IMG/VR virus record: IMGVR_UViG_3300030106_004626
Location: 1 to 61,116 of that record
Strand: one strand, 5' to 3'
DNA from: a virus
Lineage: Duplodnaviria > Caudoviricetes
DNA: 61,116 nt
This document shows, piece by piece, positions 3,784-61,017 of the stretch; position 1 is the first letter of the stretch, and every line of letters begins with the position of its first letter. Below the pieces are notes generated by a model, which saw nothing but the letters and a program-made list of their open reading frames with translations, was not told the DNA's origin and did not search any database. Made by a program: the position numbers and the translations under genes.

Positions 3784-3815
3784 TGGTTTAGTGGTTCAGG
3801 TTTCGGGGTTCAGGG

Positions 3816-4233: not shown

Positions 4234-4241
4234 GGTTCTTC

Positions 4242-38886: not shown

Positions 38887-40674
38887 ATGGCGGTAAGCAA
38901 TCCTTCCATCAAGCAGATACTCGAACCACGAATCGACGGTAAAACAAAACGCATGGATGTAGGGGGATTGTTAATCCCACCGACCAGTCTTATCACCGCT
39001 TTGTTGTATGGTTTTGCAAACCACGAACACTTGCGTGCAAAAGAATATTATTTTTGGCGCGTCTGCGATGAGCTGTGGAACCATGATGATCTTCCTGAAA
39101 AGTTAATGATCCGACATCCGTGGGCAGAACACATGGTATGGGCAGCTTTGAATAATAAGTATCTGGCTATCGGAGGGTCTGCATCTTCTGGCAAGTCACA
39201 TACAATGGCCGCTTGGGGGATAATTAACTGGCTTTCTAAGCCCAAGGATACGCTTGTTCTTATGACATCAACCACGTTACGCGAGGCTCGCAAGAGGATC
39301 TGGGGGTCGGTTATGTCTTTATTATCCGTAATCGACGGAGCGCCGATCAAGATCCGCGACTCGATCGGTAATGCTGCCTACATCGATGAAAAAGGAACGC
39401 TTATTGAACGAGCGGGGATTTCACTCATTGCTGCGGAAAAGTCAAAGACACGCGAGGCCGTAGGTAAGTTTATTGGTATTAAACAAAAAAGAGTAATCCT
39501 GATCGGGGATGAGCTTTCTGAACTGTCAGAGGCTATTTTGCAAGCAGGGTTGTCTAACTTATCTAAGAACCCTGAGTTCCAGCTAATTGGAATGTCGAAC
39601 CCCAATAGCAGATTTGATGCCTTTGGAGTATGGTCGGAGCCGATTAATGGGTGGGACTCAGTTGACACCAGTATGGAAGATGGATGGCCGACCAAATGGG
39701 GCGGCGATTATATCCGGTTAGACGGAGAACGCTCTCCCAACATAATTGCGGGAGAGGTTCTTTATCCTTGGCTACCTACTCAGGAAAAGATTGACGAGGA
39801 TAAGGGGCTACTCGGCCCCGAGTCTCGTGGTTATATGCGGATGATTCGCGCTATCTTTTTTGACTCGGACGAAACGACAGGAATCTATGGCGAGAACGAA
39901 CTAGCCATGTCAAAAGCGATGAACAAAGTTGAGTGGCAAGGTTCTCCCGTCAGAGTAGCTGGGGTTGACCCTGCTTTTACAAACGGGGGAGACCGGACAA
40001 TTCTTTATACTGCTTCAGTGGGATACGATACTACGGGCCAATACGTCATTGAGTTTGGAGAAGCAATCCACTTGAATGACGACGCTACTAACAAGGCGGT
40101 TCCTCGGACTTATCAGATTGTTAAACAGATTAAAGACCACTGTGAAAAACGACATATTTTACCTGAGAATGTTGCCGTTGATGCCACTGGTGCAGGGGCA
40201 CCTTTTTGCGATGTGTTATCTGGAGAATGGGGGAGCGGGTTTTTGCGGGTTGGGTTTGGTGGAAAAGCCAGCGACAAGCGGGTAAGCGCGAACAGTCGGT
40301 CGGTAGGCACGGAGTTGTATGTGAACAGAGTTTCTGAGCTTTGGTTTGTCGGGAAAGAATTGATGAGAACCCGTCAAGTATTTGGAGTCAGCACTGATCT
40401 GGCTCAAGAGATAACTAGCCGAAATTATGACATGGTAAAAAGCGGAACTTTGCGGGTAAAAATCGAGTCAAAACCTGAATTTAAGTCTCGTTTCGGACGC
40501 AGCCCTGACCTTGCTGATGCCGCTTTTTTGGCATTAGATTGTGCCCGACAACGGCTTGGTCTTGTAGCGGTTGATCCCCCTGAAGAAAGAAAGGATGGTC
40601 GCCCCCACCGTCGGACTACAATTAAGCAGTTGGGACAAGCATTACAGAACCAAGATGCGGTTTTGCTGGATTGA
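38887..40674 (+). CDS. terL: terminase large subunit
   Basis: GSASSGKS, IGDE, SNP, GVDPA, VDATG and SPDLADA motifs. Confidence 0.92.
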   Translation: MAVSNPSIKQILEPRIDGKTKRMDVGGLLIPPTSLITALLYGFANHEHLRAKEYYFWRVCDELWNHDDLPEKLMIRHPWAEHMVWAALNNKYLAIGGSASSGKSHTMAAWGIINWLSKPKDTLVLMTSTTLREARKRIWGSVMSLLSVIDGAPIKIRDSIGNAAYIDEKGTLIERAGISLIAAEKSKTREAVGKFIGIKQKRVILIGDELSELSEAILQAGLSNLSKNPEFQLIGMSNPNSRFDAFGVWSEPINGWDSVDTSMEDGWPTKWGGDYIRLDGERSPNIIAGEVLYPWLPTQEKIDEDKGLLGPESRGYMRMIRAIFFDSDETTGIYGENELAMSKAMNKVEWQGSPVRVAGVDPAFTNGGDRTILYTASVGYDTTGQYVIEFGEAIHLNDDATNKAVPRTYQIVKQIKDHCEKRHILPENVAVDATGAGAPFCDVLSGEWGSGFLRVGFGGKASDKRVSANSRSVGTELYVNRVSELWFVGKELMRTRQVFGVSTDLAQEITSRNYDMVKSGTLRVKIESKPEFKSRFGRSPDLADAAFLALDCARQRLGLVAVDPPEERKDGRPHRRTTIKQLGQALQNQDAVLLD

Positions 40675-41182: not shown

Positions 41183-42526
41183 ATGGCCGCAAAGAAAAAA
41201 GCGCCAAAAGGACGGGTCTACGCGGATAGCCCACAAAACAGAAATTTTAAAGGGGCGGGCGGAAAAATATACAATCGAGTAGGTAAACCGCACGGCTCCA
41301 AGCCATCTACGTGGCCGGAGGTAAAGAAGCCTACTGCTGCGAAGCCTACCCCTGCTGGTGGTTTGGGACGGGGTTACGGCGGCACTAAAAAACCTAAGGC
41401 CACTACGTCAAAGCCTATCCCTGCTGGTGGTTTGGGACGCGGTTACGGGGGCACTCGAACACCGAAAGAAAAAGCAAAGGTTATTAAAGAAGCGGGGCGG
41501 GCAAAAAAACTGGGGAGCGTTTTGAAAAAAGCTCCGTATGCCCAAGCATTGATTCAGGGAATCTCGGGGATAAGGCAAGCAACTAGCGAAGAAGCCCGCA
41601 AAAAGGCGTTGCAACAATACGGTGAAGATCTTGGGCTTGCTGGTAACGTAGGCCGTGCGCTTGCAGGTGGCTTTCTTGACCCTGCACGGGCAACGTCTGC
41701 TGTAGTGCAGGGACTCGCAGAATTAGGGAGGGGACCAGAAGAAATGAATCTCCGAACAAAAGAAGAAATAATAGCTACTATGGCCCCCGAGGATTTAGCG
41801 CGGCGAAAAGCGATGCTCGCTGCTTTTAAATCTCGTAAAGCTGCTAAAACCTCAGAAGCCCCTGAAGCTCCTGAAGCTCCTGAAGCCCCTGAAGTTGTTG
41901 AAGCTCCCGAAGTTTCTCAAGAACCTTTGACTGGAAGAACCTTGGCGCGGGCCATGCGGGTTTCTTTTGAACAGCTACAAAATGATCCTAAAGCTCTTCG
42001 CGCAAGTATGTCTGGTTTGAGGCAAGCTGCTATTGACGCGGGGATCGCGGATGCAGACAAGTTTAACCGCGTAGGCCGCAAGATGTATGCGGACTTTAAA
42101 AGACAGCAAAAAGCCGCCCCTACCGTAGACCCACGGTCCCCTGAAGCGAGTGCCTATGTAAAGACGCCGGGACTTGATGCCCTCGCAGAAATGCAAAAGC
42201 GAGAGTTTGGGACCAGCACGGCGCTTCGTGGTTCTGTAGGCGGTTTAAAAGATCCTTCTCGCAGACTTGGAACGAGGGCCGGAGACGCTAGACGACGAGC
42301 ACGGGAACTTGAAAGAAGAGGCTACCGAAAAGAAGCAGGGGCGTTACGCGCAGCCGCTGCTGCTAGTGGAGAGCCACGTTTACAGACGCAAGCCTATCGT
42401 GAAGCTGTTCGCGCTGAAGAGGAAGAAGCTCGTAGAAAAGCTGCGGCAAAAAGAGCAGAGGACGCTAGGCGAAAAGAAGATGCGGCTATAGGGCGTCAAT
42501 TTACAGATCAAATGGATCAGACTTAA
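41183..42526 (+). CDS. putative internal virion protein
   Basis: 447 aa, basic, Ala/Gly-rich, helical. Confidence 0.55.
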   Translation: MAAKKKAPKGRVYADSPQNRNFKGAGGKIYNRVGKPHGSKPSTWPEVKKPTAAKPTPAGGLGRGYGGTKKPKATTSKPIPAGGLGRGYGGTRTPKEKAKVIKEAGRAKKLGSVLKKAPYAQALIQGISGIRQATSEEARKKALQQYGEDLGLAGNVGRALAGGFLDPARATSAVVQGLAELGRGPEEMNLRTKEEIIATMAPEDLARRKAMLAAFKSRKAAKTSEAPEAPEAPEAPEVVEAPEVSQEPLTGRTLARAMRVSFEQLQNDPKALRASMSGLRQAAIDAGIADADKFNRVGRKMYADFKRQQKAAPTVDPRSPEASAYVKTPGLDALAEMQKREFGTSTALRGSVGGLKDPSRRLGTRAGDARRRARELERRGYRKEAGALRAAAAASGEPRLQTQAYREAVRAEEEEARRKAAAKRAEDARRKEDAAIGRQFTDQMDQT

Positions 42527-43541: not shown

Positions 43542-46500
43542 ATGTCAGAGCAAACTGATACCCAACCCACTGTCAATCCGTTAGGATTCTCCGAATGGTC
43601 ATCTGAAAATAATTTTAATGACCCACTTGAAAGTAGAGTAAAATACGGAGATTATCTGCGAGAGCAGTATATTAACGCCGAGGCGTATAATCCTACAGTA
43701 GAACAAGAAATCTCTACGGCGTTTGCACAGTCTTTGCAACAAGAAGGGTTGCTGACAGAAGAAAATGTTGGTGATGTAGAACAAAGGATATCAGCCATTC
43801 AAGGTAGCGTTTCTCTTGATCAAGAAGCTCGCAATATGCGCGACTCTTTGTCGTCTACCGAAGACGCACAGACCTTGTCGGACTACTTGTCTGCCGCAGA
43901 CGTAGACGCCCCGTCGCCAGAATACTTGGAAGAATTACAGCCTCTCAAGAGCAAGGCGACGGAGATTGTAAACAACGAAAAGGATGCGCGGGCGCGGGCA
44001 ATGATAGACGCGGGTGAAATCCCCATGGCTAAACTGTCTTCTGGAGAGCTTTTAGTGGGCGAGGCGGCAGAAAGAATGGGGATCGTTGCCGCAATCAAAT
44101 CTTCTAAATCGGGCGGGGTTACTATGTCCGATGCTATAGCGGCTAAAGCGCAACTGAATACTCCTGATGGGTGGGAGATTCCGCTGTATAAAATTAAAAA
44201 CTTAACAGATATTTATCGTCTACTTGAAGTAGAGCAAAAAGCAGACGAAGACTTTTCTCTTATTATAGACGGGCTCTCAACAGAGCTTGCGGAGTCTGAA
44301 TATGACGCCGGAGACCGTATGGAAAAATGGCTCGATGGTTTGGGCCGTTCTGGAGTTAATTTTATCAGACGGATTTCAGGTAAAGGCGAGGATGTTGACA
44401 AAGAGAACGCTCGCCGCAGAGCAATAGAAGAAGCTAGAGGAACTAACATCAGGCAACTTGCTGCAAAGTATGCGCTAAAGTTTGATAAACGACCTGAAGA
44501 TGTCGAGAGGGCTCTCAAACAGTTGTCTGTTGATAATGCGAACAAAAAACAAATGTTTGAGTTCCATGATGAAGATGACGAGATCGGTAAAAACATTAGG
44601 TTTTTAGGATTCGGCCTTCCTTCGGTTTCACCGCAAGCGTTGGTAAACAAAGACGTTTTTGACAAGGCTATCGCTGCCCACCCCGACATGAGCCAGAATG
44701 TTAAAGACGCTCTGGACCGGCAACGGGTCAATTACCTTCAATCGCAGTTTGTAGATTACAACAAACTACTTTCTCAAACCAGTGTTGCGGATGAATGGAG
44801 CAAAGCCTTAATCACAGGCAGGGCATCGGGTGTTGAAGACTACCGGATTCTTGAAGCCTTTGTTGCTGATGAGGATAACTACAATGAGTTTAAAGAGCGG
44901 TTGTCTGGGCTAGGAGCATCCGTGTGGCACGGATTTGGTCAAATAATCCATGCGATTCCTGCTGGTTTTGGATTGCAGATGTCAAAAGATTACTTGGCTT
45001 CAGTGGCCCAGAAGAACTCAAACCGCCGACAACTGGCCGAAGTGTTTGGTGAGGAGTTTGGATTTTTGCAAGACGTTGGGGAAACTGCCTTTCCTATGCT
45101 CATAGATGTGGGGCTTACTGCCTTGCTCGCAGCGGGAACGGCTCCTTTGGGAGGCTCTGGTGCTGTAGCTTATGCTTCTATGAAAGCGGGGGGCCGCGCT
45201 TCGGCCTCCTTAGCAGGTAAGGGAGTTACAAAAGCGTTATTTTCTAATGTCTTCAGAAGAAAAGCGGGGAAGAGCATTACCGAACAGGCCGACGAACTTC
45301 TTGGCGAAGGGTTGATTAAAGGAACTAGATCTGGCGCGGTTGATATCCTTAAAAACTATAACGGAAAACTAGCGTCTAAACTTGGTATCGCCCCCGCTGT
45401 TTTTGTCCCAGCAGCTACTAGGTCGGGATCAGCAACTTATGGTGCGGTGTATAACCAGTTACGGCAAAACCCTGACATAACTGAAGAAGAGGCCCACGAC
45501 AGGGCGCTTGGTTCCATGCTTTTGGCCGGAACTTTTACAGGTATTATTACCTCCTCATTTTCTCTTATTGGAAAAGGAGGTCTTGAAGACGCCTTGTTAA
45601 AGGGACTGACCTACAAGCAGATGAATACGGTTGCTAAAAGTGTAACCAACATGGTTGAAGGAGACCTATTCGAGACGGCTCAAAAAGCCATCTCTACCAC
45701 CATGAAAAAATATGCTTTCGGTGGGGTAAAAGGACTAATGAAAAACTTTGCAGATGAAGGCGTCGAGGAGGGCATCGATGAGTTTGTCAATGGGCTAATA
45801 ACTGATGCTGCCCTGAATGAAAACACACCGTTTTTAGAACGGCTGCAACAAACATGGCATGCTGTTGTTTTGGGCGGCACAATGGGGGCGGGTGTCCCCG
45901 TAGCCCAATTTGCTCTACGCCCGCTAAAACCGGCGGCAACAAGTAGTGCTCAAATGGGGGCGATGTTTGATGAAGTTTTAACAGATATGGCGCGTGATCT
46001 TACTGACAACGGAGCGCCTATAACCGCAGAAGTGCTTTCTGCAATAGCATCAGACACACGAAGAAAAGACGCAAGGTTGTCAGTAGTTCCTACGCCGCAA
46101 GAACAAGAAGACATTCTCGAAGAACAAAGAACACGAACGCTTGTCCCTCAAGATAGCGGTGTCCCTCTTGCATCAGGTATTACTTCTGACGAGAAGTTTA
46201 GCCAAGAACTAGAAACGTCAGTTAACCCTGACTCGGTCGCCGAAGCTGTAGCCGAGACATTAGCAAGTAGCACCCCAGTTGTGTCTGGGGCAGACCCTAA
46301 TACGGTTGAAACTAAAGGTAGCCTGATGCGGTCGTTAGGGATGCAGGTTCGAGAAGCAAGTTCAGTTGAAAACACAGACCATCAGTCTGTTCGTGATCTT
46401 CTTGTTCCCCCTGTTGCAGGTACAGAACCTGATTATTTTGAAGGCGCTCGTCCGCTTGCGCGTCAACTGGTGTTAGACCCATCTCGTCAAAGTGAGGCTG

Positions 46501-49500
46501 ACGCTATTGAGGCTTCCTATACTGAGCGGATTCAAAAAGTTAACGAAGCCGAGGCCCGCTACAGAAAAATGGACCGAGAAGCGCAGCCATTTGAAATGGC
46601 GGCGGGTCTTGAGTCTCCTGTCAGGAAAGGACTTCGGCGAGCGGTTCAAGAAGGTAAAGCAATAAGCCCTGAAAAAGCTGCTGAATTACGGGGGGATGTT
46701 TTTAAAGACAGGATTCTTGCGCTCAAGAAACTTAAAATTGAGCAGTCGGTAGAACAAGAAGAGCAAGAGGCACAAGAGTTGCCAGCATCTATTGAAGCGC
46801 CGGTTAATTTTCTTATTAATAGTGGGTTCCAGCACATCGTTACAATCCCCAAGCTAAAAAGACTAGGCATACCTGTTAATGCGAGGACTACCTCCGAGCC
46901 ATTCTTACGTTCTGTAAACCGACGTATTGCTAAAGAAGTAACAGAAAAATTTCCCAAGCTAAAAATTACCAAGCCAGCAAACGGTTCAGCAATCAAGTCT
47001 GTTTACGGGCAAGGCCAAGTGTTTGTTGACCAGAACCAAGTAGGTCAGTTTGACAACGATCCGGTAGCCATGCTGACTTTGTTAGAACTCGGAACGCCGA
47101 TCGTAGTTTCTGAAGAAGCTCTCTCATCCCCTACCTTGAACCCCGCTTTCCGGTTTACACAAGTTGGGGAGACCACTGTGGTTTCTAACATTATGGTTCC
47201 CGAGTCACGGGGCCTTGTTTCTGCACTCACTCCTGCTGAACGTGCGCTTGCACTTCGTCCAGATTATAGCCCGCTTAGTGAGTTAGTTAATACGGTCACA
47301 TCTCTCCGTGGAGAAGGTATCCAAAACCCTGACGCCTTGATTTCTTCCCCGTTCAACCCCGACGAAAAAATTACCGTCGAGGAAGCTATGTCAAAGTTAG
47401 AGCAGAGCGCGGACGTTACTGAATTTTTACAGCCAACACGGCGGGGCCTGACTGAGCCTTTTGCAGCTACTGCGGCTATCGAACTAAGACTCAGGGCGCA
47501 GGAAGCCTTGTTCAGGGGTGACACCGTATCTCTTGAAGGACTCGGCAATCAAGTTGCTAACCGCTACCAGCAAGAACAGGAAGCTCGTTTAAATCATCAG
47601 AAAGAAGTCTTTATGTCTACGGTCTCTCCTGAGAACGCGGCGGAACTTCAGGCGGACCCCGACTTTAACCCAGAATCTGAAACTTCAGATACCTATACGG
47701 CTTACCCCGAAGAAGATCCTATCCTGTTTTCTCCGTCTGAGCTTTCAGGTTTACTCAAAGACGCCCAATCAAATGCGATAGCGGCTATCACTGGTGACCA
47801 AGAACTAAAAACTCGGGTTGTAAATCTGGTTCAAAACGAAGTCTTTACCTCAACCACTATTGATTTCGACCGTGTATCCAACAAAGCATTGTGGGGTTAT
47901 CTAGTTCAGTGGATGGCGCAGGGAAACAGCAGGGCACATCCGGCCAGCATTACGTTTCAGAAAGAACTAAAAGGTAACAGGTTCGACATGGGTCGCCCTG
48001 TCAGGGACGCCCTCCGCATAATGACTTTGTCGTCGAACTCTATTGAAGGGACAATTCAAAATAATTCTGAATATAGGTCTTTCTTAAAAGATCAGATACG
48101 CTCCCTTAGAGGAGTAGAGGCTTCTGATGGTCAAGTAACCGAGTTCTTTAACTTTATACGCCGGTCTATTGGCGAGCTTCACCTTCGTTCGCAACCCACT
48201 GCAATGTCTCTTGCTGAAGTCCAGCAAGTTAATCTTGAGGCCATCGCTGCGCTGGGCTTAAAAAGCGGGGATTCGTCTTCGATTATTGAAGCCCTTCGTC
48301 GTATTGCCGGAGTGTCTTCTCGCACACAGAAAAAATACGACAAGAATCTAGTTGCACTGGCTCGGCTTCTTTTGAAGTCGCCAGACTACATCAATACAAT
48401 TGAGCTTACTATTGATGAGACAAACCAAAATTACGCAGGTAATTTTGACATTCTTAATGATGGCACCCCTGCTATCTCAATAAACATTAGCGGACATAAC
48501 CCGCGCGGGGTCGCCGACACGCTACTGCACGAACTTACTCATGCTTTTGTAACTAATGTTACCCGCAAATCTCCGGCTCAACAGACTCGCCAAGAAGCCA
48601 ACGCGATTGGTGTTCTGGAACAAACGGTCCGAGGGATACGCGAACGCCTTAACGTGCGCGGCTCTCAGTTAACTAAGGTTGGTTACACGAACAACGACCC
48701 TCGTGTTCTCGACGGGGTAGAAAATATAGACGAGTTCGTGGCTCATTTTCTCACCTCGACCGACTTTCAAGCGGTAGTAAAAGTAATTTCTGACCAACAG
48801 AATAATTTCTTTCAGCGAGCTATTGATGCAATCGTCGCGTTCTTTAATCCTACCCAAACTGAAATTCCTCAGTTCACAGAAATATTTTCTTCTGTGCTCG
48901 ACCTGTCTCAAGCGGCTATTGCCACGGCAGGTCCAAGAAAAAAGAAAGCAACCATCTCGATGGATGAGTTTGTAGCTTTGCAAGATGAAGGCAGAGTAAA
49001 CTCTGAATCTCTTTCCACAACCGCAGCAGACTATATTGCAGATAAGGTATTCCCCGCGTCTCCCGCGACCAACAGCACGATTCGCAAAGAACCTGTCACG
49101 GCCAATTCGTTAGCAAATAAAGTAGCTCACGACATCATTCAGTCGCAGCAAGAACAGGTCCGCCTTGCATCGAACGTCCAAGCCGCAACGGGAGTTGATC
49201 CAACTACCCAACAAGAAATAATCTCGCGTATCGAAGAAACTGTTTCTTATGTTGAAGGACTTGTTAGTCCTGAAACACAGATAGAAATAAACAACGAGAT
49301 CCCCGTCATGGCCGAGGTGGACCCCAAGACTGGAGTCCTGACGATAAATCCTTTGAAATTGTCTGGCCTTGTCTTAGAGCTTCAACAACGCAATGGAGGT
49401 CGTCCTGTCCCTGTGCATACTCGTCGGGGGATATTGGCGGTAGTGATTAATGAGGAAGTTGCTCATGCCGCTTCTGTTTCCGCGCTTACTACTACAGAGA

Positions 49501-52500
49501 TCCAAGAAATCATGGACTCCATGACTCTTGCAGATGCTTATCGGGCGATTGATGCCTACGGAGATGATTCAGCAAAAGCAGGGGAGGTTCGCGAGAGCAT
49601 GAAAATGGGTTGGCGGACTGGCAACCCCGAAGTGAAATCACAAGTTGTTGAAGAAATGCTACGGCAACACGCCCAACGGGTCACCCGAGGTTTCACTACC
49701 GAAGAAGATGTAGCCTTCCTTAGATCTAACCCGAGCTTGTTGCAGTATATCATTCGTTACTTCAAAAGTTTCTTGAAGAAGTTGGGCTACTACAGGTCTC
49801 GTGGAGATATCACCCCGCAGTTGCGTGTGGCTGTTGACCGAATGGTCAATGAAATCAGGGCCATGGAATCAGGGTTCAGGGTTCAATCTAACTTTGCCCC
49901 GTTCGATGCAAACAATCCTGCGTCTGCTGTAGAGAAATTCAGAAAGCAGATCAACATGAACAAGCCTATCGAGCGGCCTGATGCAGGCGTGCCTGCGCTC
50001 GCTTCAGGGATCACAACGCTTGATGATGAAGCTCAACCAACAAAGTATCAAATCATAGACCGTCACACCGGACTGCAAGTTGGTGCGGATTACACCGATA
50101 AGAAACGCGCACGATCTAGAAGAGAGCGCCTTGATTTGGAATACGGGGGCTACCGTTATGGCGTAAGGGAGGTTTCCTCGGGGAGGATGTTGTCTTCAGG
50201 CATCACGGCTGATGCTTTATCTCTTTCCCCTGTAGACGCACCACTAGATCTGTCAGGCATCGGAGTCACCGCCGGATCGAGAGTCAACACAGCACAAGGC
50301 CGCGAGGCAGAAGACAGCACGTTTGAAGCCTACGAGCAGCAGGATAGCTATGTAATCAACAGCGTTTCTGTCGCCAAGTATGTAGCGTTCCAAGGGCGCA
50401 AGAACCTTAGAGGCCGACCTACTCAGGTTCGCGGCAAGGATACTCTTGTTTATAAACAACTGAAGGCTCTGGACGACCGCAGGGTGGAGATGTTTCCTGC
50501 CACTGCAATAAAAGCAACGCTTATCAAAGAAATTAATTCTGCGAGTAGAGTCAGTGACGCCCTCGTTAAGCGTATAGCCAACAAGCTATACACTGGGGAA
50601 GCCGGATTTACTGGAACTGAAGCACAGATGGCCAACGTAAAAGGTCTTATTGATTTTGTCAGAGGTGCGGACAGAACAACATTAGCCGCTGCAAAAGAAT
50701 GGAGATCGCAAACAAACAAAGATATTCTTGATGAGATGCGTCCTCTGGCGGACGAGGTTTACGACACCGTAAGTGCTTTCGCCGTCGATAACTTGGTTCA
50801 TCTTTATGACTCCATGCACCCCGTTATGAGAGAACGGGCCAAGCTGTGGTATGAAGGAGCAAACAGGATCGCGCAGGATATGGCGAAGAGATATAACATT
50901 ACTCTTGAGCAATCCTCAACCGCACTTGCAGTTCTAAGCCCGCAGAAGGATTGGTTCCAGAACGTGTCCCTCGCGGGCCGTGTCATGGAAGTTGTCACCA
51001 AGAACAAACAGAATAAGTATACAAAGTCCATGGCAGATAAAGCACTGCAAATGGCTGAGAACATTTCTAAAAGTGCCGCTGAAACAGCGGGTCAGTTCCA
51101 GAAGCGGAAGAAAGAAGTTATTTACGATACAAAGAAGTTCAACGATATGATGCTCGGCAAGACTTTGGGGCAACTAATTAAACAGGCCAAAAAAGGAACC
51201 GAGTCTGAAACCCTTCCTGCCAGATACGTCCGCATATTTGATCAACTAAACCATCCGCGTGGTTATGCCATCTTATCCCCAGAAGGAGACAGGCTAGGGT
51301 TACAGGTAACAAAGAAAAACACCATCGCCGCAGTAGGATGGGGGTCTTACAAAGAAATTCAAAAAGCAATTGACGCTTTGCTGACTACTGATGAAGCCGT
51401 TCATAGTGATCTTCTTGGGGAGCAACACAAGGTAAGAAACTTTAGAAACAATATTGCCGACCCTGCTAATTCAGATGACGGGACTATTGACACTCATGCA
51501 GTGAGCGCACTTTACTTTATTCCTGTTGCTGGTGCGGACACTGAGGTAGCGCACAATTTTGCGTCCTCTAAAGGAGAGGACAAGATCAGCAGTAGTGGTT
51601 CAAAACAATTTGGTATTAACGGGACGTATGCCTTGAATTTAAAGGCGCATCAAGATGCGGCTGCGTTTATCAACGAACGAGACGGGACTAACTTGTCTAC
51701 CCGAGAAATCCAATCAATAACGTGGGAGCAAATACGGACATTGTTCTTGCCAGAACAAAAACGCGAGAAAGCCAGCTACGCTAAGAAAGAAGACAAGGAA
51801 ACAGTCCTTGATGAATCTCGTCAAATATGGGATAAAACAACTGACGATGGCGAAGCGAGACAACTTATTGAGGAAAGATTTGGAGGCTATGGCTTCCCAG
51901 ACTGGGCCACACCAAGGGAGCTGCGCTCTGTTGCTGAAGATACGGCCTACGCAGAAAAAGTTCGACTCAAGCGACTTCCTTCGAGTTCTGCATCCGGACT
52001 ATCCGATCCCGACGCCAGCGGAGATCCTGACGGAACTAGTTCCGCCGGAGTTACTGGATTAAAATCCGGCATTTGGAGTCCGGCAGCGCATATGCTGGAC
52101 GTTTCTTCTAATGAGGCAGCCGAGCTTTTGTCAGACATCCGGTTGGATGGAGCTAAAGAATCTTCTAAAAATAGATTCTTAACTGCCGCTGAAGAAGCTA
52201 ACAAGAGTTTAGACGACTTTGATTTAGAAGGGGCGAGTATTTTCTTGGCCGAAGATAACTCGGCTGGAGTTGCAGTCAGTCCTGTTACTGAATCTGAAGG
52301 GGGAGATCTTTTCATCTTTGATTCCCGCGACGATAATAAAAATGTCATCGGTATATTAGAGTTGCTAGAGGTAGCAACATCGCAAGAGGCAATAGCAGAT
52401 TCTTCAGGGAACCCGATCAAAGTAGCTACGGTAAAGGTCAAAGATATTAATAATTTACCGACCGTAATGCATCAGACATTTGGGTTCAGCCCATACAGCC

Positions 52501-55500
52501 GCGTCTTGAGCGAAGACGCACCGGAAACTGTGTTCATGGGGAGAGATTCGATTGACGGGTTTTATAACTCTGTAGCGCACCCATATGAAAATCAGAGGGA
52601 AACAATACCTACCTTTAACTCTGAAGAACTTGCTAGTGATTACCGTGCGCGGCGTATGGCGGACATAGGTATTTCTCTTGTAAGGAGACCCATGACCACA
52701 CGGGAAAAAATACGCAAGCAGACAGAACAAGAAGAGCCAAGCGTAACTCTTGGAGATATTATCAAAGGGCTTCCGGCGACACTTGTGTCAGGTGGCTTGG
52801 CAACAGACACAAAAAGAAATTTGTTTGGCACGACAATTAAAGAGAACGCAAGAATGCGTATCAGTGCTAAAGCTCTTGATAGAATTCGCCAAGAGAAAGC
52901 CAGAATCGCAGAAGAAGAACCTATGTTCCGCGAAGAAGGCGCGATTGAAACAAAAGCGTTACGGTCGGGTGTTCAAGTAGAGAGCGCAAAGATTCTTACT
53001 TTGAGTGAACTGAGAGGGCTTGATAGTTCTGTTAACGAAGCGGTTCAGGATATTGAAAATGATCAGGGCCGTCCTCTCGACGAGGGGCAGCAAGCCTCTA
53101 TTATGTCCGGCATCTTCGGGGCCGTGTCTGATCTTCCGTCTGAGTTTAATGACGCTGGTGTAGACTATAGCGAGTTTATCGAATTGTTGGAGCTGCCCCT
53201 TATCGAAAAAAGTGTTGGCTTCAATAAGATCGGCGGGACATTCAAGAAGCTATTCCTCGGGGAGACTGACCCCACAGTTCAGCGGTTCTCTCGGCAAAGG
53301 GATGCGTTCCTTAGATCAGGAGACAAGATAGTTGAGGAGTATCATTTGAAATATAAGAGGGCGATCGAGAAAGACTACGACCCCGACAATACCCCGTGGG
53401 AAACAATCCAGACAGCTAGCGGAACGACCAATAACATTGACCCTGACCCTGACGGAGCGATAGCTGATGCTAGGGACAAGGCTAAGATTGATATCCAGAG
53501 GAAGTATGCCGCCGAGTTATCAAATAAAATAACGCAGATAGAAGATGCGTATGACAACGCACGCGCCAACATCAAGGCTACAGAACCTGATGCAGGTAAG
53601 CGCAGGCAGCTTCGCAATCAAGAGAGGAAAAAGAAGAATGAAGCGATTACGCGAGAGACTGAGTTGAATAAGGCAGCTAAAGGAGCTGAAGAGGATCTAG
53701 CCGACATCAGTTATAAGGCCGACATAAAGAAAGCGTTCGCGGCTAGAAAAGATAAAATGATGCGTGACCGTGACGCAGCCTTAAAACAAATACAAGTAGA
53801 GTCCCCAGACTTATTCAACGTCCTTCTTGATCTCCGGCGGCTCACAGACGAGCTATCCGTAAAAGCAAGAGACCTGTTCGGGCGGCATGATAAAGGGGTG
53901 CTCGTTAAGTTTGATAACAATCTTGGGCTTTACGTCACCCGTAGATACCGGATGTTCTCTGAGACAGACTACGTCGATCGCATTCTTAAATCCAATGAGG
54001 AAGCGGACGTTGCCGTCAGGTCTGCGGCGATTGATTTTATGCACGACCAGTTTATCGAGAACGAAACTCGACGGCAGATAGCTGCCAACCCCTCGATATC
54101 TGAGTCAGATGCACGGGCAGAAGCAGAGAGGGTATACAACTCCAAAGAGCTAGGAGGACAGTCACTGGGGTATCAGATGATCACTGAGTTTCTCTCATCG
54201 TATGATACAGAAACGGGGCCGGAGGATTTTGCTTCCGCCTTTGCATTGGCTGGAATGCCCAAGACCAAAGAGCCACAGGCTACAGGAGCACTCCGCGCAA
54301 TCGTTAAGAACCTGCAAGGCAGGGCGGAAATACCCAAGCCGCTCGCGGACCTTATGGGCGCGAACAACATTCCAGAAGACAGCGTAGACAACCTGCTTTA
54401 TGCCTTCTCTACCGTAGCCAAGATTGCATCACATCAGCATTTCCTTGAGTCGATGCGGCAACAAGGAATAGAGAACGGGTGGCTCTTTACAAAAGAAAAG
54501 TATAACGACCTTCTAAAGGAACCCGATGGGTATACAAAATACGCTAATCGTTTCAGACAGATACAAAATTCTGGGGCGGACAGTGGGCTAAATCCTCTGG
54601 CTGGTTTGTATGTTGAGAAGGATATCTACAATAGCATCTTGCCAATGTTCCAGCAGACAACGAGGGCGGGCAATGACGCCGCGTCTTCCGTGATGGGCAC
54701 TTCCTTGGCGGTAGCGCAGAGACTTACCGGAGCAGCAATGGCTGCGAAGACTCTGTTCTCATTAGGATTCTACCTCCGAAATGCACTCGGTAACGTGCTC
54801 TTCTTCGGCCCCGCGCAGGGATATATCCATTCGGCTAAGGATATTTTTTCTGGTAACCCGATGTCTGGCACGGGGATGAGTATGTTCTCTGCGATTAAAC
54901 GGGCCGTTCAAGGCAACAGGGCCGAGACTAGCGCATACCTCAGATCGCTTGAGGGGCTTGATGTCTTCGGAAACGAAGTCCGTTCGGAGATTATGATCCG
55001 GCTGCTTCGGGGAGAAGAAACAACTGATGGAGTTCAAGCCCAGCTTTCAGATCTAGCGTCTAAGGCATCCAGCAAAAAGACACCTGCACACGCTAGAAGA
55101 GTCGCAGCGGATACGATGGCGCGTCTAGCAGGGGCCATGGATACCTTCTACAAGATTGGTTACTTTGAACACGAACTAGCCGTGCTGCGAAAAGCATACA
55201 AAGCAGATCTGGCTGCGGGTAAAATCTCGGAAATAGATCTAAAGCGTGAAGCAGCAGAGATCATAGGGGACACCGCGCAGTCATATTCTCGCGCCCTTCC
55301 GATTATTAAAAAGTTCACTGGCTCCGGCGCTGGGTTGCTCATCGCACCTTTCGTTCGGTTCACGGCTGAAGTCCCACGGATTGCGGTCAATACAATCAGA
55401 CGAGGAGTCAAAGAGATGGGGTCGGACAACCCCGTCATCAAAGCGAGGGGATATCAACGGCTGGCAGGGTTCGCCGCAGTCACTGGGGGCCTCAGTATGG

Positions 55501-56453
55501 CGGTGCCTACGCTCTTGCGAGTCGTGCTCTCTGGGATGGGCGAGGAAGAAGATGAAGCGTTCCGTATGTCTTTACCTCCATACCTTCGGAATCATACTTT
55601 CTTCATTCAGAAGTTAGACAACGGAGACATCAAGTCATGGGATCTTACTTACTTAAATCCTTTTTCAGTTATCGCGGACCCGATGTTGCGGACCCTAGAA
55701 CACGCCGTGCGGGGAGAGCCGCTCACTGCCGCTACTAAGCTAGTCACATCCAGCTTCGTTGATCCTTATCTCGGCGATCAGATCTTTGCCGGAGCGGTCT
55801 TTGATATTAGAGAGAACCGGAATGCGCGTAACGATAATCCTATTTGGGAGGAGACAGATACATTACCGCTTAGGATTGCTAAGATGGCTAGGTATCTAGG
55901 GGAAGAAGCCTACGGGCCGAGGACTCCCCTGAAGTTAATCGAGGCTTACCAAGCACTCGGGCGGGACGAGCAGAGTTTTGATAACTCAGCGTTCGGCATT
56001 ATCTTTAACGAAGCAATGCCCGTGGTGCCTAAGACCAAGGCCCCCATCGATATGTTTGAGCGAGTCGTGTTTAAGATGCGCGACGAGCAGACAAGAGCGC
56101 AACGTAAGTTTGGGGAGCTAAAGAAAACCGCAGGGATGACCGAGGGTCAAGTGGCAAGAATCCACCGAGACATCAGGAAGAGCAGGATGCGTATCAACAG
56201 CCAACTGTCCCGCGCCATGAAAGGTTTCAGGGGGATGGGCGTCTCGAACAATGATATGTATCAGGCAATGAAAGGGGCCAGATACGGGAAGCGGAGATCC
56301 CAGCTTCTGTTCACAGGGTTCATGGAGAACCCTGTCCCACCCAAGAATCTGGTAGATGATTTAATGTCTACTGAAGTGGGGAGGGAAAGACTGAGAATAC
56401 TCATGGAAGAACACGCTAATTACGCAAGGTTCCTCCGGCTGGACGATGATTAA
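43542..56453 (+). CDS. giant polyvalent/internal virion (ejection) protein
   Basis: 4303 aa; HELTH zincin motif, DUF7178/HhH-like domain, GNAT-like segment, helical N- and C-terminal regions. Confidence 0.8.
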   Translation: MSEQTDTQPTVNPLGFSEWSSENNFNDPLESRVKYGDYLREQYINAEAYNPTVEQEISTAFAQSLQQEGLLTEENVGDVEQRISAIQGSVSLDQEARNMRDSLSSTEDAQTLSDYLSAADVDAPSPEYLEELQPLKSKATEIVNNEKDARARAMIDAGEIPMAKLSSGELLVGEAAERMGIVAAIKSSKSGGVTMSDAIAAKAQLNTPDGWEIPLYKIKNLTDIYRLLEVEQKADEDFSLIIDGLSTELAESEYDAGDRMEKWLDGLGRSGVNFIRRISGKGEDVDKENARRRAIEEARGTNIRQLAAKYALKFDKRPEDVERALKQLSVDNANKKQMFEFHDEDDEIGKNIRFLGFGLPSVSPQALVNKDVFDKAIAAHPDMSQNVKDALDRQRVNYLQSQFVDYNKLLSQTSVADEWSKALITGRASGVEDYRILEAFVADEDNYNEFKERLSGLGASVWHGFGQIIHAIPAGFGLQMSKDYLASVAQKNSNRRQLAEVFGEEFGFLQDVGETAFPMLIDVGLTALLAAGTAPLGGSGAVAYASMKAGGRASASLAGKGVTKALFSNVFRRKAGKSITEQADELLGEGLIKGTRSGAVDILKNYNGKLASKLGIAPAVFVPAATRSGSATYGAVYNQLRQNPDITEEEAHDRALGSMLLAGTFTGIITSSFSLIGKGGLEDALLKGLTYKQMNTVAKSVTNMVEGDLFETAQKAISTTMKKYAFGGVKGLMKNFADEGVEEGIDEFVNGLITDAALNENTPFLERLQQTWHAVVLGGTMGAGVPVAQFALRPLKPAATSSAQMGAMFDEVLTDMARDLTDNGAPITAEVLSAIASDTRRKDARLSVVPTPQEQEDILEEQRTRTLVPQDSGVPLASGITSDEKFSQELETSVNPDSVAEAVAETLASSTPVVSGADPNTVETKGSLMRSLGMQVREASSVENTDHQSVRDLLVPPVAGTEPDYFEGARPLARQLVLDPSRQSEADAIEASYTERIQKVNEAEARYRKMDREAQPFEMAAGLESPVRKGLRRAVQEGKAISPEKAAELRGDVFKDRILALKKLKIEQSVEQEEQEAQELPASIEAPVNFLINSGFQHIVTIPKLKRLGIPVNARTTSEPFLRSVNRRIAKEVTEKFPKLKITKPANGSAIKSVYGQGQVFVDQNQVGQFDNDPVAMLTLLELGTPIVVSEEALSSPTLNPAFRFTQVGETTVVSNIMVPESRGLVSALTPAERALALRPDYSPLSELVNTVTSLRGEGIQNPDALISSPFNPDEKITVEEAMSKLEQSADVTEFLQPTRRGLTEPFAATAAIELRLRAQEALFRGDTVSLEGLGNQVANRYQQEQEARLNHQKEVFMSTVSPENAAELQADPDFNPESETSDTYTAYPEEDPILFSPSELSGLLKDAQSNAIAAITGDQELKTRVVNLVQNEVFTSTTIDFDRVSNKALWGYLVQWMAQGNSRAHPASITFQKELKGNRFDMGRPVRDALRIMTLSSNSIEGTIQNNSEYRSFLKDQIRSLRGVEASDGQVTEFFNFIRRSIGELHLRSQPTAMSLAEVQQVNLEAIAALGLKSGDSSSIIEALRRIAGVSSRTQKKYDKNLVALARLLLKSPDYINTIELTIDETNQNYAGNFDILNDGTPAISINISGHNPRGVADTLLHELTHAFVTNVTRKSPAQQTRQEANAIGVLEQTVRGIRERLNVRGSQLTKVGYTNNDPRVLDGVENIDEFVAHFLTSTDFQAVVKVISDQQNNFFQRAIDAIVAFFNPTQTEIPQFTEIFSSVLDLSQAAIATAGPRKKKATISMDEFVALQDEGRVNSESLSTTAADYIADKVFPASPATNSTIRKEPVTANSLANKVAHDIIQSQQEQVRLASNVQAATGVDPTTQQEIISRIEETVSYVEGLVSPETQIEINNEIPVMAEVDPKTGVLTINPLKLSGLVLELQQRNGGRPVPVHTRRGILAVVINEEVAHAASVSALTTTEIQEIMDSMTLADAYRAIDAYGDDSAKAGEVRESMKMGWRTGNPEVKSQVVEEMLRQHAQRVTRGFTTEEDVAFLRSNPSLLQYIIRYFKSFLKKLGYYRSRGDITPQLRVAVDRMVNEIRAMESGFRVQSNFAPFDANNPASAVEKFRKQINMNKPIERPDAGVPALASGITTLDDEAQPTKYQIIDRHTGLQVGADYTDKKRARSRRERLDLEYGGYRYGVREVSSGRMLSSGITADALSLSPVDAPLDLSGIGVTAGSRVNTAQGREAEDSTFEAYEQQDSYVINSVSVAKYVAFQGRKNLRGRPTQVRGKDTLVYKQLKALDDRRVEMFPATAIKATLIKEINSASRVSDALVKRIANKLYTGEAGFTGTEAQMANVKGLIDFVRGADRTTLAAAKEWRSQTNKDILDEMRPLADEVYDTVSAFAVDNLVHLYDSMHPVMRERAKLWYEGANRIAQDMAKRYNITLEQSSTALAVLSPQKDWFQNVSLAGRVMEVVTKNKQNKYTKSMADKALQMAENISKSAAETAGQFQKRKKEVIYDTKKFNDMMLGKTLGQLIKQAKKGTESETLPARYVRIFDQLNHPRGYAILSPEGDRLGLQVTKKNTIAAVGWGSYKEIQKAIDALLTTDEAVHSDLLGEQHKVRNFRNNIADPANSDDGTIDTHAVSALYFIPVAGADTEVAHNFASSKGEDKISSSGSKQFGINGTYALNLKAHQDAAAFINERDGTNLSTREIQSITWEQIRTLFLPEQKREKASYAKKEDKETVLDESRQIWDKTTDDGEARQLIEERFGGYGFPDWATPRELRSVAEDTAYAEKVRLKRLPSSSASGLSDPDASGDPDGTSSAGVTGLKSGIWSPAAHMLDVSSNEAAELLSDIRLDGAKESSKNRFLTAAEEANKSLDDFDLEGASIFLAEDNSAGVAVSPVTESEGGDLFIFDSRDDNKNVIGILELLEVATSQEAIADSSGNPIKVATVKVKDINNLPTVMHQTFGFSPYSRVLSEDAPETVFMGRDSIDGFYNSVAHPYENQRETIPTFNSEELASDYRARRMADIGISLVRRPMTTREKIRKQTEQEEPSVTLGDIIKGLPATLVSGGLATDTKRNLFGTTIKENARMRISAKALDRIRQEKARIAEEEPMFREEGAIETKALRSGVQVESAKILTLSELRGLDSSVNEAVQDIENDQGRPLDEGQQASIMSGIFGAVSDLPSEFNDAGVDYSEFIELLELPLIEKSVGFNKIGGTFKKLFLGETDPTVQRFSRQRDAFLRSGDKIVEEYHLKYKRAIEKDYDPDNTPWETIQTASGTTNNIDPDPDGAIADARDKAKIDIQRKYAAELSNKITQIEDAYDNARANIKATEPDAGKRRQLRNQERKKKNEAITRETELNKAAKGAEEDLADISYKADIKKAFAARKDKMMRDRDAALKQIQVESPDLFNVLLDLRRLTDELSVKARDLFGRHDKGVLVKFDNNLGLYVTRRYRMFSETDYVDRILKSNEEADVAVRSAAIDFMHDQFIENETRRQIAANPSISESDARAEAERVYNSKELGGQSLGYQMITEFLSSYDTETGPEDFASAFALAGMPKTKEPQATGALRAIVKNLQGRAEIPKPLADLMGANNIPEDSVDNLLYAFSTVAKIASHQHFLESMRQQGIENGWLFTKEKYNDLLKEPDGYTKYANRFRQIQNSGADSGLNPLAGLYVEKDIYNSILPMFQQTTRAGNDAASSVMGTSLAVAQRLTGAAMAAKTLFSLGFYLRNALGNVLFFGPAQGYIHSAKDIFSGNPMSGTGMSMFSAIKRAVQGNRAETSAYLRSLEGLDVFGNEVRSEIMIRLLRGEETTDGVQAQLSDLASKASSKKTPAHARRVAADTMARLAGAMDTFYKIGYFEHELAVLRKAYKADLAAGKISEIDLKREAAEIIGDTAQSYSRALPIIKKFTGSGAGLLIAPFVRFTAEVPRIAVNTIRRGVKEMGSDNPVIKARGYQRLAGFAAVTGGLSMAVPTLLRVVLSGMGEEEDEAFRMSLPPYLRNHTFFIQKLDNGDIKSWDLTYLNPFSVIADPMLRTLEHAVRGEPLTAATKLVTSSFVDPYLGDQIFAGAVFDIRENRNARNDNPIWEETDTLPLRIAKMARYLGEEAYGPRTPLKLIEAYQALGRDEQSFDNSAFGIIFNEAMPVVPKTKAPIDMFERVVFKMRDEQTRAQRKFGELKKTAGMTEGQVARIHRDIRKSRMRINSQLSRAMKGFRGMGVSNNDMYQAMKGARYGKRRSQLLFTGFMENPVPPKNLVDDLMSTEVGRERLRILMEEHANYARFLRLDDD

Positions 56454-59430: not shown

Positions 59431-59671
59431 CGATGGCCTGTTGCCTGAACTCGTGGAACGTAGCGTGTTCTAGAACGTAAACGATCATCTTGCTCGCATC
59501 TTTCCAAGTAGCGCAGACTTCGATTTCCTCGGCCATTGCTTTTTCTGTAGCGTATAGGGTTGGTTTTTCGTCCATTATACTTTCTTTCCAAGTGTGACGG
59601 GGACTCGATCCCCGAAGTGAAACTTCCTTGTCCCGATGTCTGAGGGCTTGTGGTAACCGTAATCGAGCCAC
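59348..59671 (-). CDS. hypothetical protein
   Basis: Likely start MDEKPTL at about 59575, coupled to the vWA gene stop. Confidence 0.55.
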   Translation of the reverse strand: MARLRLPQALRHRDKEVSLRGSSPRHTWKESIMDEKPTLYATEKAMAEEIEVCATWKDASKMIVYVLEHATFHEFRQQAIDAMGDMARLADEMVEKYNEHRKSNGTE

Positions 59672-61017
59672 AGCACGGGCCAGTCAGGTGCAGTGAGCGA
59701 GTCCCAATGCTTCAGGGTGCAGTGTCCATCAGTAAGGAAGACCATCCCGTCAACCCATGGCACGTTCTCCTCAACCCACTCGAATGCAGGGGCGAAGCGA
59801 GTTCCACCACCACCACCGAGAAAGTCAGGCAGGGCCTCGCCAGCGTAGACCGTAGTAGTCTCGTGAACACGCACATCGATCGGGATCACATGGACTGCCT
59901 TGGGATTGAACTCATCGAGAACCTCCTGAATCTTGACGATCATCTCAGGTATCCGGTCGATGTTAGAGCCAGAGGTATCAACGGCAAAGGCCAGTTCAGC
60001 CGCAGCCATACTCCCGCGAGCGCGTTTTACCAGTCCCCTCCGGTTATATGTCCGATGGCAGAAAGGTCGGTTGAACCCCTTAGTGTCACGGTTGGTGAAC
60101 CAGTTACGGAGATGGGTATCCCATGCCACGGGGTCAGATGTTCTGGCTAGGTCGCGGTCCACCTTGGAACCAGCACCGGAGCCAAGAACTCCCTTGGTCT
60201 CATTCAAGCGGTCCTCGAAAGCTGCCTTCCGAGAAGACTCCTCATTAGCGGCATCGAACTCTTTCAGGGTCTCACCCTCATCCAGTTCAGGCTCGATGAA
60301 ATCGTTGTGCCCCCCACCGAACTCGCCGGAGGTAGCTGGCTCGCCGTCCACATCAGGAGCCGGAGCAGCAGCGTCACCGTCACCGTCACCGTCACCATCA
60401 GGAGCAGCAGCGTCCTCGTCAGAAGGATCGCCGTCACCAGACTCAGGCGGCGGGGTGGAGCCTATGATCGCAGGAGGAACAGGGTAGAGCTTGAGGAGCT
60501 TGTCCGCTAACTGCTCGGCGGAAATATCCTCCTGATCCTTATCGTAAAGTTTTTTTAAGTTAGTAAAGCACCCCTCGATCGGAGTCATAATGTCGAAGGG
60601 AATGATCCCCTGCCTCCGCATCTCCAGCTTGGCAGCTTCGTTCTCATCTTCCAGTTCGGCATTGATGACGAGATCGCCAGCAACATTACACGCATCCCAT
60701 GTCTGGTCTGGGTTGAGCCATGGGATAAAGATCCTCGCGCCATTGAAGGGCCGGAACCTAGCAGGGTGACAGTAAATGATATGCTTGTTCTCGTGACCAA
60801 CTACATACGCCGCCTCGGAAGGCTTGCGCTTGTTGATCTCTTCCTCGTTGTAATACCCGAACCGCCCATCGGTGCAAGCCAAGGGAACGTCTCGCGTTGA
60901 CTTAATCCCTCGGTAGCAAGGACGAGCAGTGAACCCGTTCCACTTGTGGAGGTCGCGGATGCCAACCTCAAGGGGGGATTTCCCCCTTGGGTCTAGTTCA
61001 ATGAATGATGACGGCAT
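59575..61017 (-). CDS. metallopeptidase + vWA domain protein (DUF2201-like)
   Basis: ACTDG, HENKH, NVAGD..IN; acidic linker; MIDAS VDTSGS, GGGT and FLTDG. Confidence 0.85.
   Translation of the reverse strand: MPSSFIELDPRGKSPLEVGIRDLHKWNGFTARPCYRGIKSTRDVPLACTDGRFGYYNEEEINKRKPSEAAYVVGHENKHIIYCHPARFRPFNGARIFIPWLNPDQTWDACNVAGDLVINAELEDENEAAKLEMRRQGIIPFDIMTPIEGCFTNLKKLYDKDQEDISAEQLADKLLKLYPVPPAIIGSTPPPESGDGDPSDEDAAAPDGDGDGDGDAAAPAPDVDGEPATSGEFGGGHNDFIEPELDEGETLKEFDAANEESSRKAAFEDRLNETKGVLGSGAGSKVDRDLARTSDPVAWDTHLRNWFTNRDTKGFNRPFCHRTYNRRGLVKRARGSMAAAELAFAVDTSGSNIDRIPEMIVKIQEVLDEFNPKAVHVIPIDVRVHETTTVYAGEALPDFLGGGGGTRFAPAFEWVEENVPWVDGMVFLTDGHCTLKHWDSLTAPDWPVLWLDYGYHKPSDIGTRKFHFGDRVPVTLGKKV

Follow-up and report, generated by a model that had tools for sequence, protein, structure and literature searches.

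The earliest weapons that a phage or plasmid brings into the cell are thought to be its polyvalent proteins. In the available sections of Iyer et al. (2017; PMC5512222), the phage-type members are giant multi-domain proteins joining unrelated effector-type domains, and a metallopeptidase (MPTase) is proposed to process the chain into functional units; this processing has been a proposal since 2017. A similar design is described for the MARTX toxins, in which conserved N- and C-terminal regions surround a central array of exchangeable effector domains, the chain carries its own protease, and the unstructured segments between effectors contain the processing sites, marked by a fixed Leu (sections of PMC2900308). 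Here we describe a 4303-amino-acid (aa) protein of comparable layout, the ~470-kDa product of a giant open reading frame (ORF) that takes up about a fifth of the genome of an uncultured marine tailed phage (Duplodnaviria; Caudoviricetes). The sequence analysed, IMG/VR record IMGVR_UViG_3300030106_004626, is a complete or nearly complete (99%) virus of 61,116 bp; it is referred to as the window in its full length, and nucleotide (nt) positions are counted from its first letter. Polyvalent proteins and the idea of their processing by an MPTase are known already, and what appears to be new, as far as the literature was searched, is a defined joint peptide. The best explanation of the giant protein, to which we give a probability of roughly 0.55, is a phage-type polyvalent protein built as a cargo carrier, with three chassis blocks (A, B and C) around interchangeable modules that a protease would cut apart.

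The initial annotation had noticed a recurring LxSG(I/V) motif in this protein and had read it as the mark of a candidate self-processing polyprotein. The seven strings that it listed, together with the zincin motif HELTH and a degenerate NEEVAH, were all found in the 4303-aa ORF at the places given for them (Table 1). When the giant protein was compared with 3000 residue shuffles, L.SG[IV] was observed 5 times against a shuffled mean of 0.207, [LIVM].SGIT 3 times against 0.014 and SGIT 3 times against 0.070, and none of these counts was reached by any shuffle. For the loosest form in use, [LIVM].SG[IVGL], 7 instances were observed against 1.24, and 1 of the 3000 shuffles reached that count. 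LASGIT is the sole hexamer found twice in the giant protein. A six-frame scan of the whole 61-kb genome confined the motif to the giant ORF, plus two antisense-frame matches inside the same gene. The three strict copies (CTT GCA TCA GGT ATT ACT; CTC GCT TCA GGG ATC ACA; TTG TCT TCA GGC ATC ACG) use different codons at nearly every wobble position, hence selection acts on the peptide and not on the DNA, and a nucleotide-level recombination signal was ruled out on the same ground. We regard it as close to certain that the motif is a selected, functional joint peptide.

A word-index search returned 31 giant proteins of 3012-5394 aa, one of them identical to the query (P0001); the full-length homologues measure 3250-5394 aa. 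Nineteen of these (P0006-P0024), here called the clade, are 47-99% identical to the query over the N-terminal part. Pairwise blastp alignments showed aa 1-2158 and aa ~3187-4303 to be conserved and the middle to be variable. On the N side, 9 of 19 alignments to P0001 stop at query residues q2158-2159, the final T of LASGIT, and three stop at q2215, 2 residues ahead of LSSGIT; on the C side, homology restarts at q3185-3189 (IMSGIF) in 14 of the 14 homologues that have neither module I nor module J. An all-against-all blastp of the 20 clade proteins placed 483 of 937 internal ends of high-scoring segment pairs at most 10 aa from a motif end, compared with 25.3 on average and 42 at most for random positions (500 trials), the 937 ends not being independent since the proteins are related.

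The 20 proteins were cut at the motif and the pieces clustered. The resulting module map runs A, B, cargo, C; the cargo falls into 16 module families, variously combined. P0006 equals P0001 plus one 275-aa module, H, inserted exactly after ...LASGIT; P0008 has this module and lacks the 64-aa module that is present in P0006 and P0007. In 6 of the 7 carriers of module H, LRSGIT comes after FDxxQxS[IV], and the seventh, P0007, was cut earlier by the pattern, at SQSGLL. The residue at the free position x thus travels with the upstream module, so that every module has the tag as its C-terminus. Between P0006 and P0016 the full 275 aa of module H are 79% identical, whereas the chassis blocks of the two proteins are 52-61% identical, and this higher identity of the module indicates transfer of modules from chassis to chassis. 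Identity in module H is down to 40% in a second pair, P0008 and P0018, so that not every shared module is a recent transfer. Whole modules are therefore gained, lost and exchanged exactly at the motif, as seen from the break points, the module map and module H, and the earlier suggestion of swappable cargo slots marked by the motif has strong support. At aa 2405-2425 of P0014 two joint motifs stand only 11 aa apart (VSSGIT VGRDVQR SGIT) where P0015 has a 133-aa module; this looks like the stump of a module lost between two tags.

The seven strings taken together as one motif did not all fare alike. Those at aa 876, 2153, 2217 and 3187 are conserved joints at homology break points, the first of them with a variable acidic/Pro linker just upstream. 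Only the 99%-identical P0006 retains TLVSGGL, which P0007-9 (86-95% identical) have lost; the string is hence not a joint. LKSGIW is kept in 4 close relatives and lies 15 aa past the end of homology to P0010-12, which stops at q2825 within module F; it is a probable joint. LRSGVQ is likewise kept in 4 close relatives, in which both of its flanks always occur together. By sequence comparison the refined motif is [LIVM]-x-S-G-[IV]-T, ending every module in 19 homologues and spelled LASGIT, LPSGIT, LGSGIT/M, LRSGIT, VSSGIT, VDSGIT, MYSGIT, IHSGIT or LESGIT among the clade proteins. Across 90 distinct joint contexts, chosen by a loose pattern that itself fixes S and G, Leu occupies position 1 in 61 cases, Ile position 5 in 78 and Thr position 6 in 61, and position 2 is free. 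Sortase-like LPxTG and 3C-like LQ↓S readings (the arrow marks the scissile bond) were ruled out by this free second position.

Other, more distant lineages of the family lack LxSGIT and carry, at the same joints, recurring peptides of their own. L[AG]SGLGP occurs in five to six copies in the giant protein of locus L017, LETR[FIV]G in four copies in P0039, and LQSR[WFVYL]G in P0175-177, P0041 and L025; further lineage peptides are VGTSFG, GLQSAIG, LFSAPTG, L.SAPV, L.SELGA and L.TSIG. The break-point test was repeated for the P0039 lineage with its own relatives, and the breaks at q2072-2100, 2759-2772, 3169-3174 and 3443-3478 correspond to the four LETRxG sites. Of the 107 family proteins above 2000 aa in length, 33 contain three or more spaced copies of a 6-mer with one wildcard, as against 9 of 107 shuffled versions; some of the recurrent 6-mers in the 33 proteins are low-complexity words. 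Most lineage versions fit L-x-(S/T)-x-hydrophobic-(G/T). All copies within a protein change together between lineages, which is the pattern expected of a recognition site co-evolving with its reader.

Structure models were calculated with AlphaFold2 (AF2). The model of aa 2100-3250, from a 16-row alignment, has a mean predicted local distance difference test (pLDDT) score of 44.5 and is usable only locally. The claim that the motifs lie in linkers bounding apparent domains holds for the second LASGIT and for LSSGIT, both at pLDDT 21-35 between folded units; IMSGIF is placed in a low-confidence helix. The tail with the second LASGIT falls below pLDDT 50 in another model too, where it follows a domain pair of mean pLDDT 82. 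Within 15 aa of the 90 joints, the frequency of Pro is 0.09 upstream and 0.06 downstream compared with 0.04 overall, Glu and Asp are enriched, and hydrophobic residues are depleted relative to the whole proteins. In these models the modules fold as separate units, joined by disordered linkers.

Two units had been singled out as lying between motifs, and both do. The one of about 60 aa occupies aa 2159-2222 exactly, as module L. Its mini-domain shares 60-68% identity with complete proteins, 48-51 aa long, of the Pseudomonas phages Boevelstad and phiPto-bp6g and of Achromobacter phage vB_Ade_ART, and these free proteins begin and stop within a few residues of the limits of the mini-domain in the giant protein. 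Their genes sit among small early-type genes in both Pseudomonas phages. A tblastn search of phages with the 64-aa module returned just the same three, and a word-index search with it gave no candidate. The mini-domain represents a small family of 48-51-aa phage proteins, and it had no Pfam match at E <= 1 in the whole-protein scan. The other unit, the DUF7178-like domain, is a Pfam match (DUF7178, PF23802; aa 2414-2509, E 2.2e-19) between LSSGIT and LKSGIW. In the Pfam scan of the giant protein DUF7178 stood alone at E <= 1, with no other polyvalent-protein domain model, and PHROGs returned two families of unknown function, both on the DUF7178 stretch. DUF7178 is also the C-terminal part of an 835-aa protein of Roseobacter phage CRP-738, encoded one small gene downstream of the portal; a literature search for DUF7178 found no paper. 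Modules I and J together had no tblastn match among phages, and a Foldseek search of the PDB with the cargo model gave nothing below E 0.35 and no structural relative for DUF7178 or module I. Relatives carry other cargo: ART-PolyVal was matched within one module (E 2e-06; 29.0 bits against a Pfam cut-off of 31.2 bits), and weak GNAT and methyltransferase matches, each within one module, were obtained at E 2.6e-04 to 5.2e-04, of which only the GNAT model Acetyltransf_1 nears its cut-off, the others being ~6 bits short.

The initial annotation had also noted HELTH and NEEVAH in the same chain; each lies in a zincin-like domain, Z1 and Z2, of the AF2 model of aa 1541-2160 (51-row alignment, mean pLDDT 82.4), which contains two similar domains. 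In Z1 three strands are predicted to lead to a helix bearing HELTH and then to a helix starting at E1685. In model numbering (aa minus 1540) these are strands 81-85, 93-97 and 103-108, helix 116-134 with H123, E124 and H127, and helix 143-165 from E145, at pLDDT 84-97. The modelled Z1 thus agrees with the description of the MPTase core, an HExxH helix after a three-stranded sheet with the next helix supplying a Glu. All 7 aligned clade members share E1685 and the H, E and H of HExxH. The assignment of Z1 as a putative zincin rests on the motif and this predicted topology. A full HMMER scan of aa 1401-2158 against 1.84 billion representatives found 143 proteins, mostly of 3000-5200 aa. Among 167 family proteins, which include closely related clade members, the Z1 site reads HExxH in 90 and EExxH in 20, and the Z2 site EExxH in 89 and HExxH in 35. 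The persistence of EExxH in the family suggests a working metal site with Glu as ligand rather than decay. A PDB sequence search with Z2 gave nothing useful. The complex predicted for Z1 and Z2 (aa 1541-2140, with zinc) and a 41-aa stretch around LSSGIT scored 0.01 (mark 0.32), which speaks neither for nor against binding.

Table 1. Features of the giant gene and its product; nt positions are those of the window.
Feature	Residues (aa)	Position (nt)	Strand	Remarks
Giant ORF	4303 aa	43542..56453	+	a single chain in the order chassis A, chassis B, cargo array, chassis C
Chassis block A	1-881	43542..46184	+	conserved even in distant relatives
String GVPLASGIT	873	46158	+	located in giant ORF
Joint motif 1, LASGIT	876-881	46167..46184	+	joint between A and B; LASGIT, LPSGIT or LGSGIN in 19/19 clade homologues
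Chassis block B	882-2158	46185..50015	+	contains two zincin-like domains
Z1 zincin-like domain	~1550-1790	48189..48911	+	HELTH aa 1663-1667 (48528-48542); Glu1685 (48594-48596)
Z2 zincin-like domain	~1854-2140	49101..49961	+	NEEVAH aa 1970-1975 (49449-49466), EExxH variant
Degenerate joint LASNVQ	1875-1880	49164..49181	+	between Z1 and Z2; relatives: LSSGIQ, LSSGVQ, LSSGLQ or LASGLG
String GVPALASGIT	2149	49986	+	located in giant ORF
Joint motif 2, LASGIT	2153-2158	49998..50015	+	chassis end / cargo start
Cargo module L, 64 aa	2159-2222	50016..50207	+	ends in joint motif 3
Mini-domain of module L (KYQIID...YGGYRYGV)	2168-2211	50043-50174	+	strand-helix-strand; AF2 pLDDT 69-74, flanks 21-35
String RMLSSGIT	2215	50184	+	located in giant ORF
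Joint motif 3, LSSGIT		50190..50207	+	end of cargo module L
Cargo module F	2223-2845	50208..52076	+	disordered lead-in, DUF7178 fold, degenerate joint LKSGIW
DUF7178 fold	~2326-2745	50517-51776	+	AF2 pLDDT 70-92
String GLKSGIW	2839	52056	+	located in giant ORF
Degenerate joint LKSGIW (probable)		52059-52076	+	end of cargo module F
Cargo module I, 300 aa	2846-3145	52077..52976	+	in 4 closest relatives only; AF2 confidence below 50
String TLVSGGL	3080-3086	52779..52799	+	in initial annotation; not a joint, no break point
String ALRSGVQ	3139	52956	+	located in giant ORF
Degenerate joint LRSGVQ		52959-52976	+	end of cargo module I
Segment J, 47 aa	3146-3192	52977..53117	+	ends in IMSGIF; low-confidence helix in AF2
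String SIMSGIF	3186	53097	+	located in giant ORF
Degenerate joint IMSGIF		53100-53117	+	cargo end / chassis C start; relatives read IHSGIT, LESGIT or IFSGVF
Chassis block C	3193-4303	53118..56450	+	conserved; one hydrophobic segment aa 3974-3997

According to the model that we prefer, the cargo of this phage would consist of the 64-aa module with its mini-domain of ~45 aa, the DUF7178 module, the 300-aa module and the 47-aa tail. The hexapeptide, set in a Pro/Glu/Asp-rich disordered linker, would be recognised by a sequence-specific endopeptidase and cut to release the modules, and a common end-tag would let modules pass between phages without loss of function. That the motif is a protease site is, in our estimate, somewhat better than an even bet. 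The most likely enzyme would be the Z1 domain of the chain itself (H1663-E-L-T-H1667 with E1685), an attribution that we make tentatively, at less than even odds. The scissile bond might lie between motif positions 4 and 5 (SG↓IT). In zincins such as thermolysin, specificity is determined chiefly by the P1' residue. The cut is placed before position 5 since this is the only hydrophobic position after the Leu that is kept in all lineage versions and since zincins usually select a bulky P1'.

A wider picture can be drawn for the family as a whole, though we think it rather unlikely in its entirety. A large, mostly marine family of uncultured phages would use a MARTX-like, self-processing delivery of effectors: the partly hydrophobic chassis would carry anti-host modules into the cell, and an in-chain zincin, with HExxH or a still-active EExxH, would cut before the hydrophobic residue of L-x-(S/T)-x-hydrophobic-(G/T), peptide and protease co-evolving in each lineage. 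The corresponding cuts in sister lineages (LETR↓F, and LQSR↓ followed by Y, W, F or L) would expose N-terminal Phe, Tyr, Trp or Leu, which are bacterial N-degrons, so that the released effectors would be short-lived by design.

Several observations weigh against a cargo carrier cut by its own protease. Cleavage itself is something that we infer. Z1 had no Pfam match at E <= 1 and no PDB match by phmmer at E <= 10, and its best Foldseek hit had E 0.15, with low TM-scores and nothing significant; the top rows include MATCAP, anthrax lethal factor, abylysin, selecase and jannalysin, all of which we take to be zincins. On the side of the joints, IMSGIF falls in a predicted helix (pLDDT 32-55), and aa 2804-3167 are all below pLDDT 50, so that the model says nothing on LKSGIW, TLVSGGL and LRSGVQ. 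Joint motifs recur in P0028, P0136, P0045 and P0055, four chains that lack HExxH altogether and that show EExxH in such Z1 and Z2 domains as they have. Cutting in these proteins would require an active EExxH or an enzyme located elsewhere. Across the family no clean link was found between an intact HExxH and the presence of joint motifs, as lineages with EExxH or without Z1 carry motifs as well. In each of the 20 related IMG/VR loci the giant gene forms one uninterrupted frame of 1871-5402 aa (18 of the 20 frames terminate within the locus, and the two shortest reach the locus edge) and is not split at any joint, which means that the clade offers no natural pre-cut form in support of separability. 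Finally, the N4 virion RNA polymerase, which bears an MPTase, is packaged unprocessed according to the available text of PMC5512222; the presence of an MPTase is therefore no sign in itself that a giant virion protein is processed.

The lineages with joint motifs and no HExxH also speak for a cut made in trans, by a prohead protease, another phage protein or a host protease. T4 and phiKZ-like prohead proteases cut internal head proteins at short motifs, and this phage encodes a possible trans-acting protease, a 480-aa protein (59575-61017, minus strand) with the Pfam match DUF2201_N 'putative metallopeptidase' (E 8.3e-09) and a vWA-like DUF2201 domain (E 1.3e-12), which PHROGs labels HNH endonuclease. 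We nevertheless consider cutting in trans unlikely, a judgement that overlaps with the one on cleavage as such. The motif is present in no other real ORF and so is absent from the putative portal, scaffold and capsid proteins; PHROGs and Pfam recognised no prohead protease or portal among the 30 other ORFs, weak evidence in view of the strong divergence of these genes; and a host protease would not account for motif versions that shift in step within each phage lineage.

Alternatively, the motif might stay uncut and the chain act whole, the peptide being a docking site for a partner in the capsid interior or at the portal, a hinge for threading through the tail, or an end-tag for exchangeability. 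The unbroken frame in all 20 loci and the precedent of N4 fit this reading, and the position, conservation and exchange of the motif would be equally expected of a binding tag. A pure hinge, however, needs no conservation as strict as the S-G invariant in the clade and the prevailing Ile and Thr at positions 5 and 6; microhomology for recombination is not what is conserved, as the codons differ; and cargo that works elsewhere as free 48-aa proteins, as well as enzymes with different targets, make more sense if released, an argument made by Iyer et al. (PMC5512222, text as available). On balance an uncut motif is a minority possibility. There is, in contrast, next to no room for a chance or low-complexity recurrence without function, which we count as already refuted: the loosest pattern is indeed expected more than once in a shuffled chain and one of its seven instances, TLVSGGL, is unconserved, but the counts of the stricter patterns were never reached by shuffling, aligned joints preserve the motif in proteins sharing only 47-55% identity, its copies fall on the homology break points, and the finding was replicated in a second lineage with a different motif.

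For a cargo carrier, the chassis and its place in the genome bear on how the protein would reach the host. A tblastn search with block C matched gp123 of Cellulophaga phage phi18:3 (22% identity over 72% of the block, E 1e-10), and gp123 and its homologues are annotated 'virion structural protein ... MS/MS'; block C has distant relatives in Cellulophaga phages phi13:2 and phi19:3 as well. The same block matched a protein of Pseudoalteromonas phage vB_Pun_Y3 annotated as ADP-ribosyltransferase (E 3e-22). In the ESM Atlas only viral clusters of unknown function were found, with leads to LPD38 (61% of cluster members; block C) and LPD22 (12%). Block A has three moderately hydrophobic Gly/Ala-rich segments (aa 515-538, 658-677 and 774-792) and gave no tblastn match among phages. 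From the late-operon position, the relatives bearing ART-PolyVal, the Atlas lead to LPD38 and the distant match to phi18:3 gp123 we infer that the giant protein may be packaged in the virion and injected. The cultured phage vB_Pun_Y3 (L007, OR779980.1, 1-10266) shows the same design across two adjacent genes, a protein of ~3421 aa annotated 'DdrB-like ParB superfamily domain' followed by the 1027-aa 'ADP-ribosyltransferase', the C-terminal part of which matches block C. This phage could serve as an experimental model.

The giant gene lies downstream of, and co-oriented with, the gene for the large terminase (38887-40674; PHROG 2), from which it is separated by the genes for a 447-aa basic repetitive protein and a 322-aa protein. 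This synteny is kept in 20 of 20 related IMG/VR loci, always in the order terminase, basic protein, protein of ~310-380 aa, giant gene. The 447-aa protein (41183-42526, plus strand) is of low complexity and strongly basic, with a repeated PAGGLGRGYGGT unit and a APEAPEAPEAPE run, and could have an internal or DNA-associated role in the virion; proteins of 251-712 aa fill the place between terminase and giant gene in 19 of 20 related loci. Further upstream, a 1380-aa protein (19830-23972, plus strand) contains three Laminin_G_3 (concanavalin-like) stretches (E 4.9e-35) and is probably a tail fibre or spike. The remaining presumed structural ORFs between 10.6 and 28 kb had no PHROG or Pfam family match, and a megablast search of phages with the region had no match.

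A hexapeptide at the module boundaries, in its own version in each lineage, lays the processing proposal open to direct experiment. The joint motif also provides an annotation rule by which proteins of 3000-5400 aa can be divided into functional units, many of which are unknown families and may be anti-defence proteins. For the evolution of such proteins it means that whole modules are swapped at a shared end-tag.

Compared with the phage-type polyvalent proteins, the giant protein likewise joins several unrelated effector-type domains (DUF7178 and the mini-domain, to which homologues add ART-PolyVal, GNAT-like and methyltransferase-like modules) and has one or two HExxH-type domains with the MPTase core described there. 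Models of polyvalent domains (MPTase-PolyVal, LPDs, ART-PolyVal) do not match P0001 itself in Pfam at E <= 1; relatives match ART-PolyVal, and LPD38, the Atlas lead for block C, is listed in the sections of PMC5512222 at hand as restricted to phage-type polyvalent proteins. The difference is that modules here are bounded by a defined hexapeptide with lineage versions and that the N- and C-terminal chassis are fixed around a variable middle. In the available text of PMC5512222 the word 'linker' occurs 0 times and the passages on 'cleav' name no cleavage or junction site; literature searches for a joint or cleavage motif in polyvalent proteins found none, and the supplements of that paper (alignments, architectures), outside the scope of these searches, might show such linkers.

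With the MARTX toxins there is no homology: neither RTX repeats nor an inositol hexakisphosphate (InsP6)-activated cysteine protease domain was found here (Pfam, E <= 1), the candidate protease is a zincin, and the carrier belongs to a phage instead of being a secreted toxin, with cleavage that is putative. Short consensus sites also set the cuts in virion-packaged proteins in the prohead-protease systems (T4 gp21 with IPI-III and Alt; phiKZ/SPN3US-type). There the same motif also marks capsid and scaffold proteins, whereas here, in the genome-wide six-frame scan, no such site was present in head-assembly proteins and the motif was confined to the giant protein. The replication polyproteins of RNA viruses differ from this single gene of a double-stranded DNA tailed phage, with its exchangeable accessory cargo and presumed cleavage; what the picornavirus 3C and coronavirus Mpro polyproteins have in common with it are short lineage-specific sites between independently folding units, all copies of which change in step.

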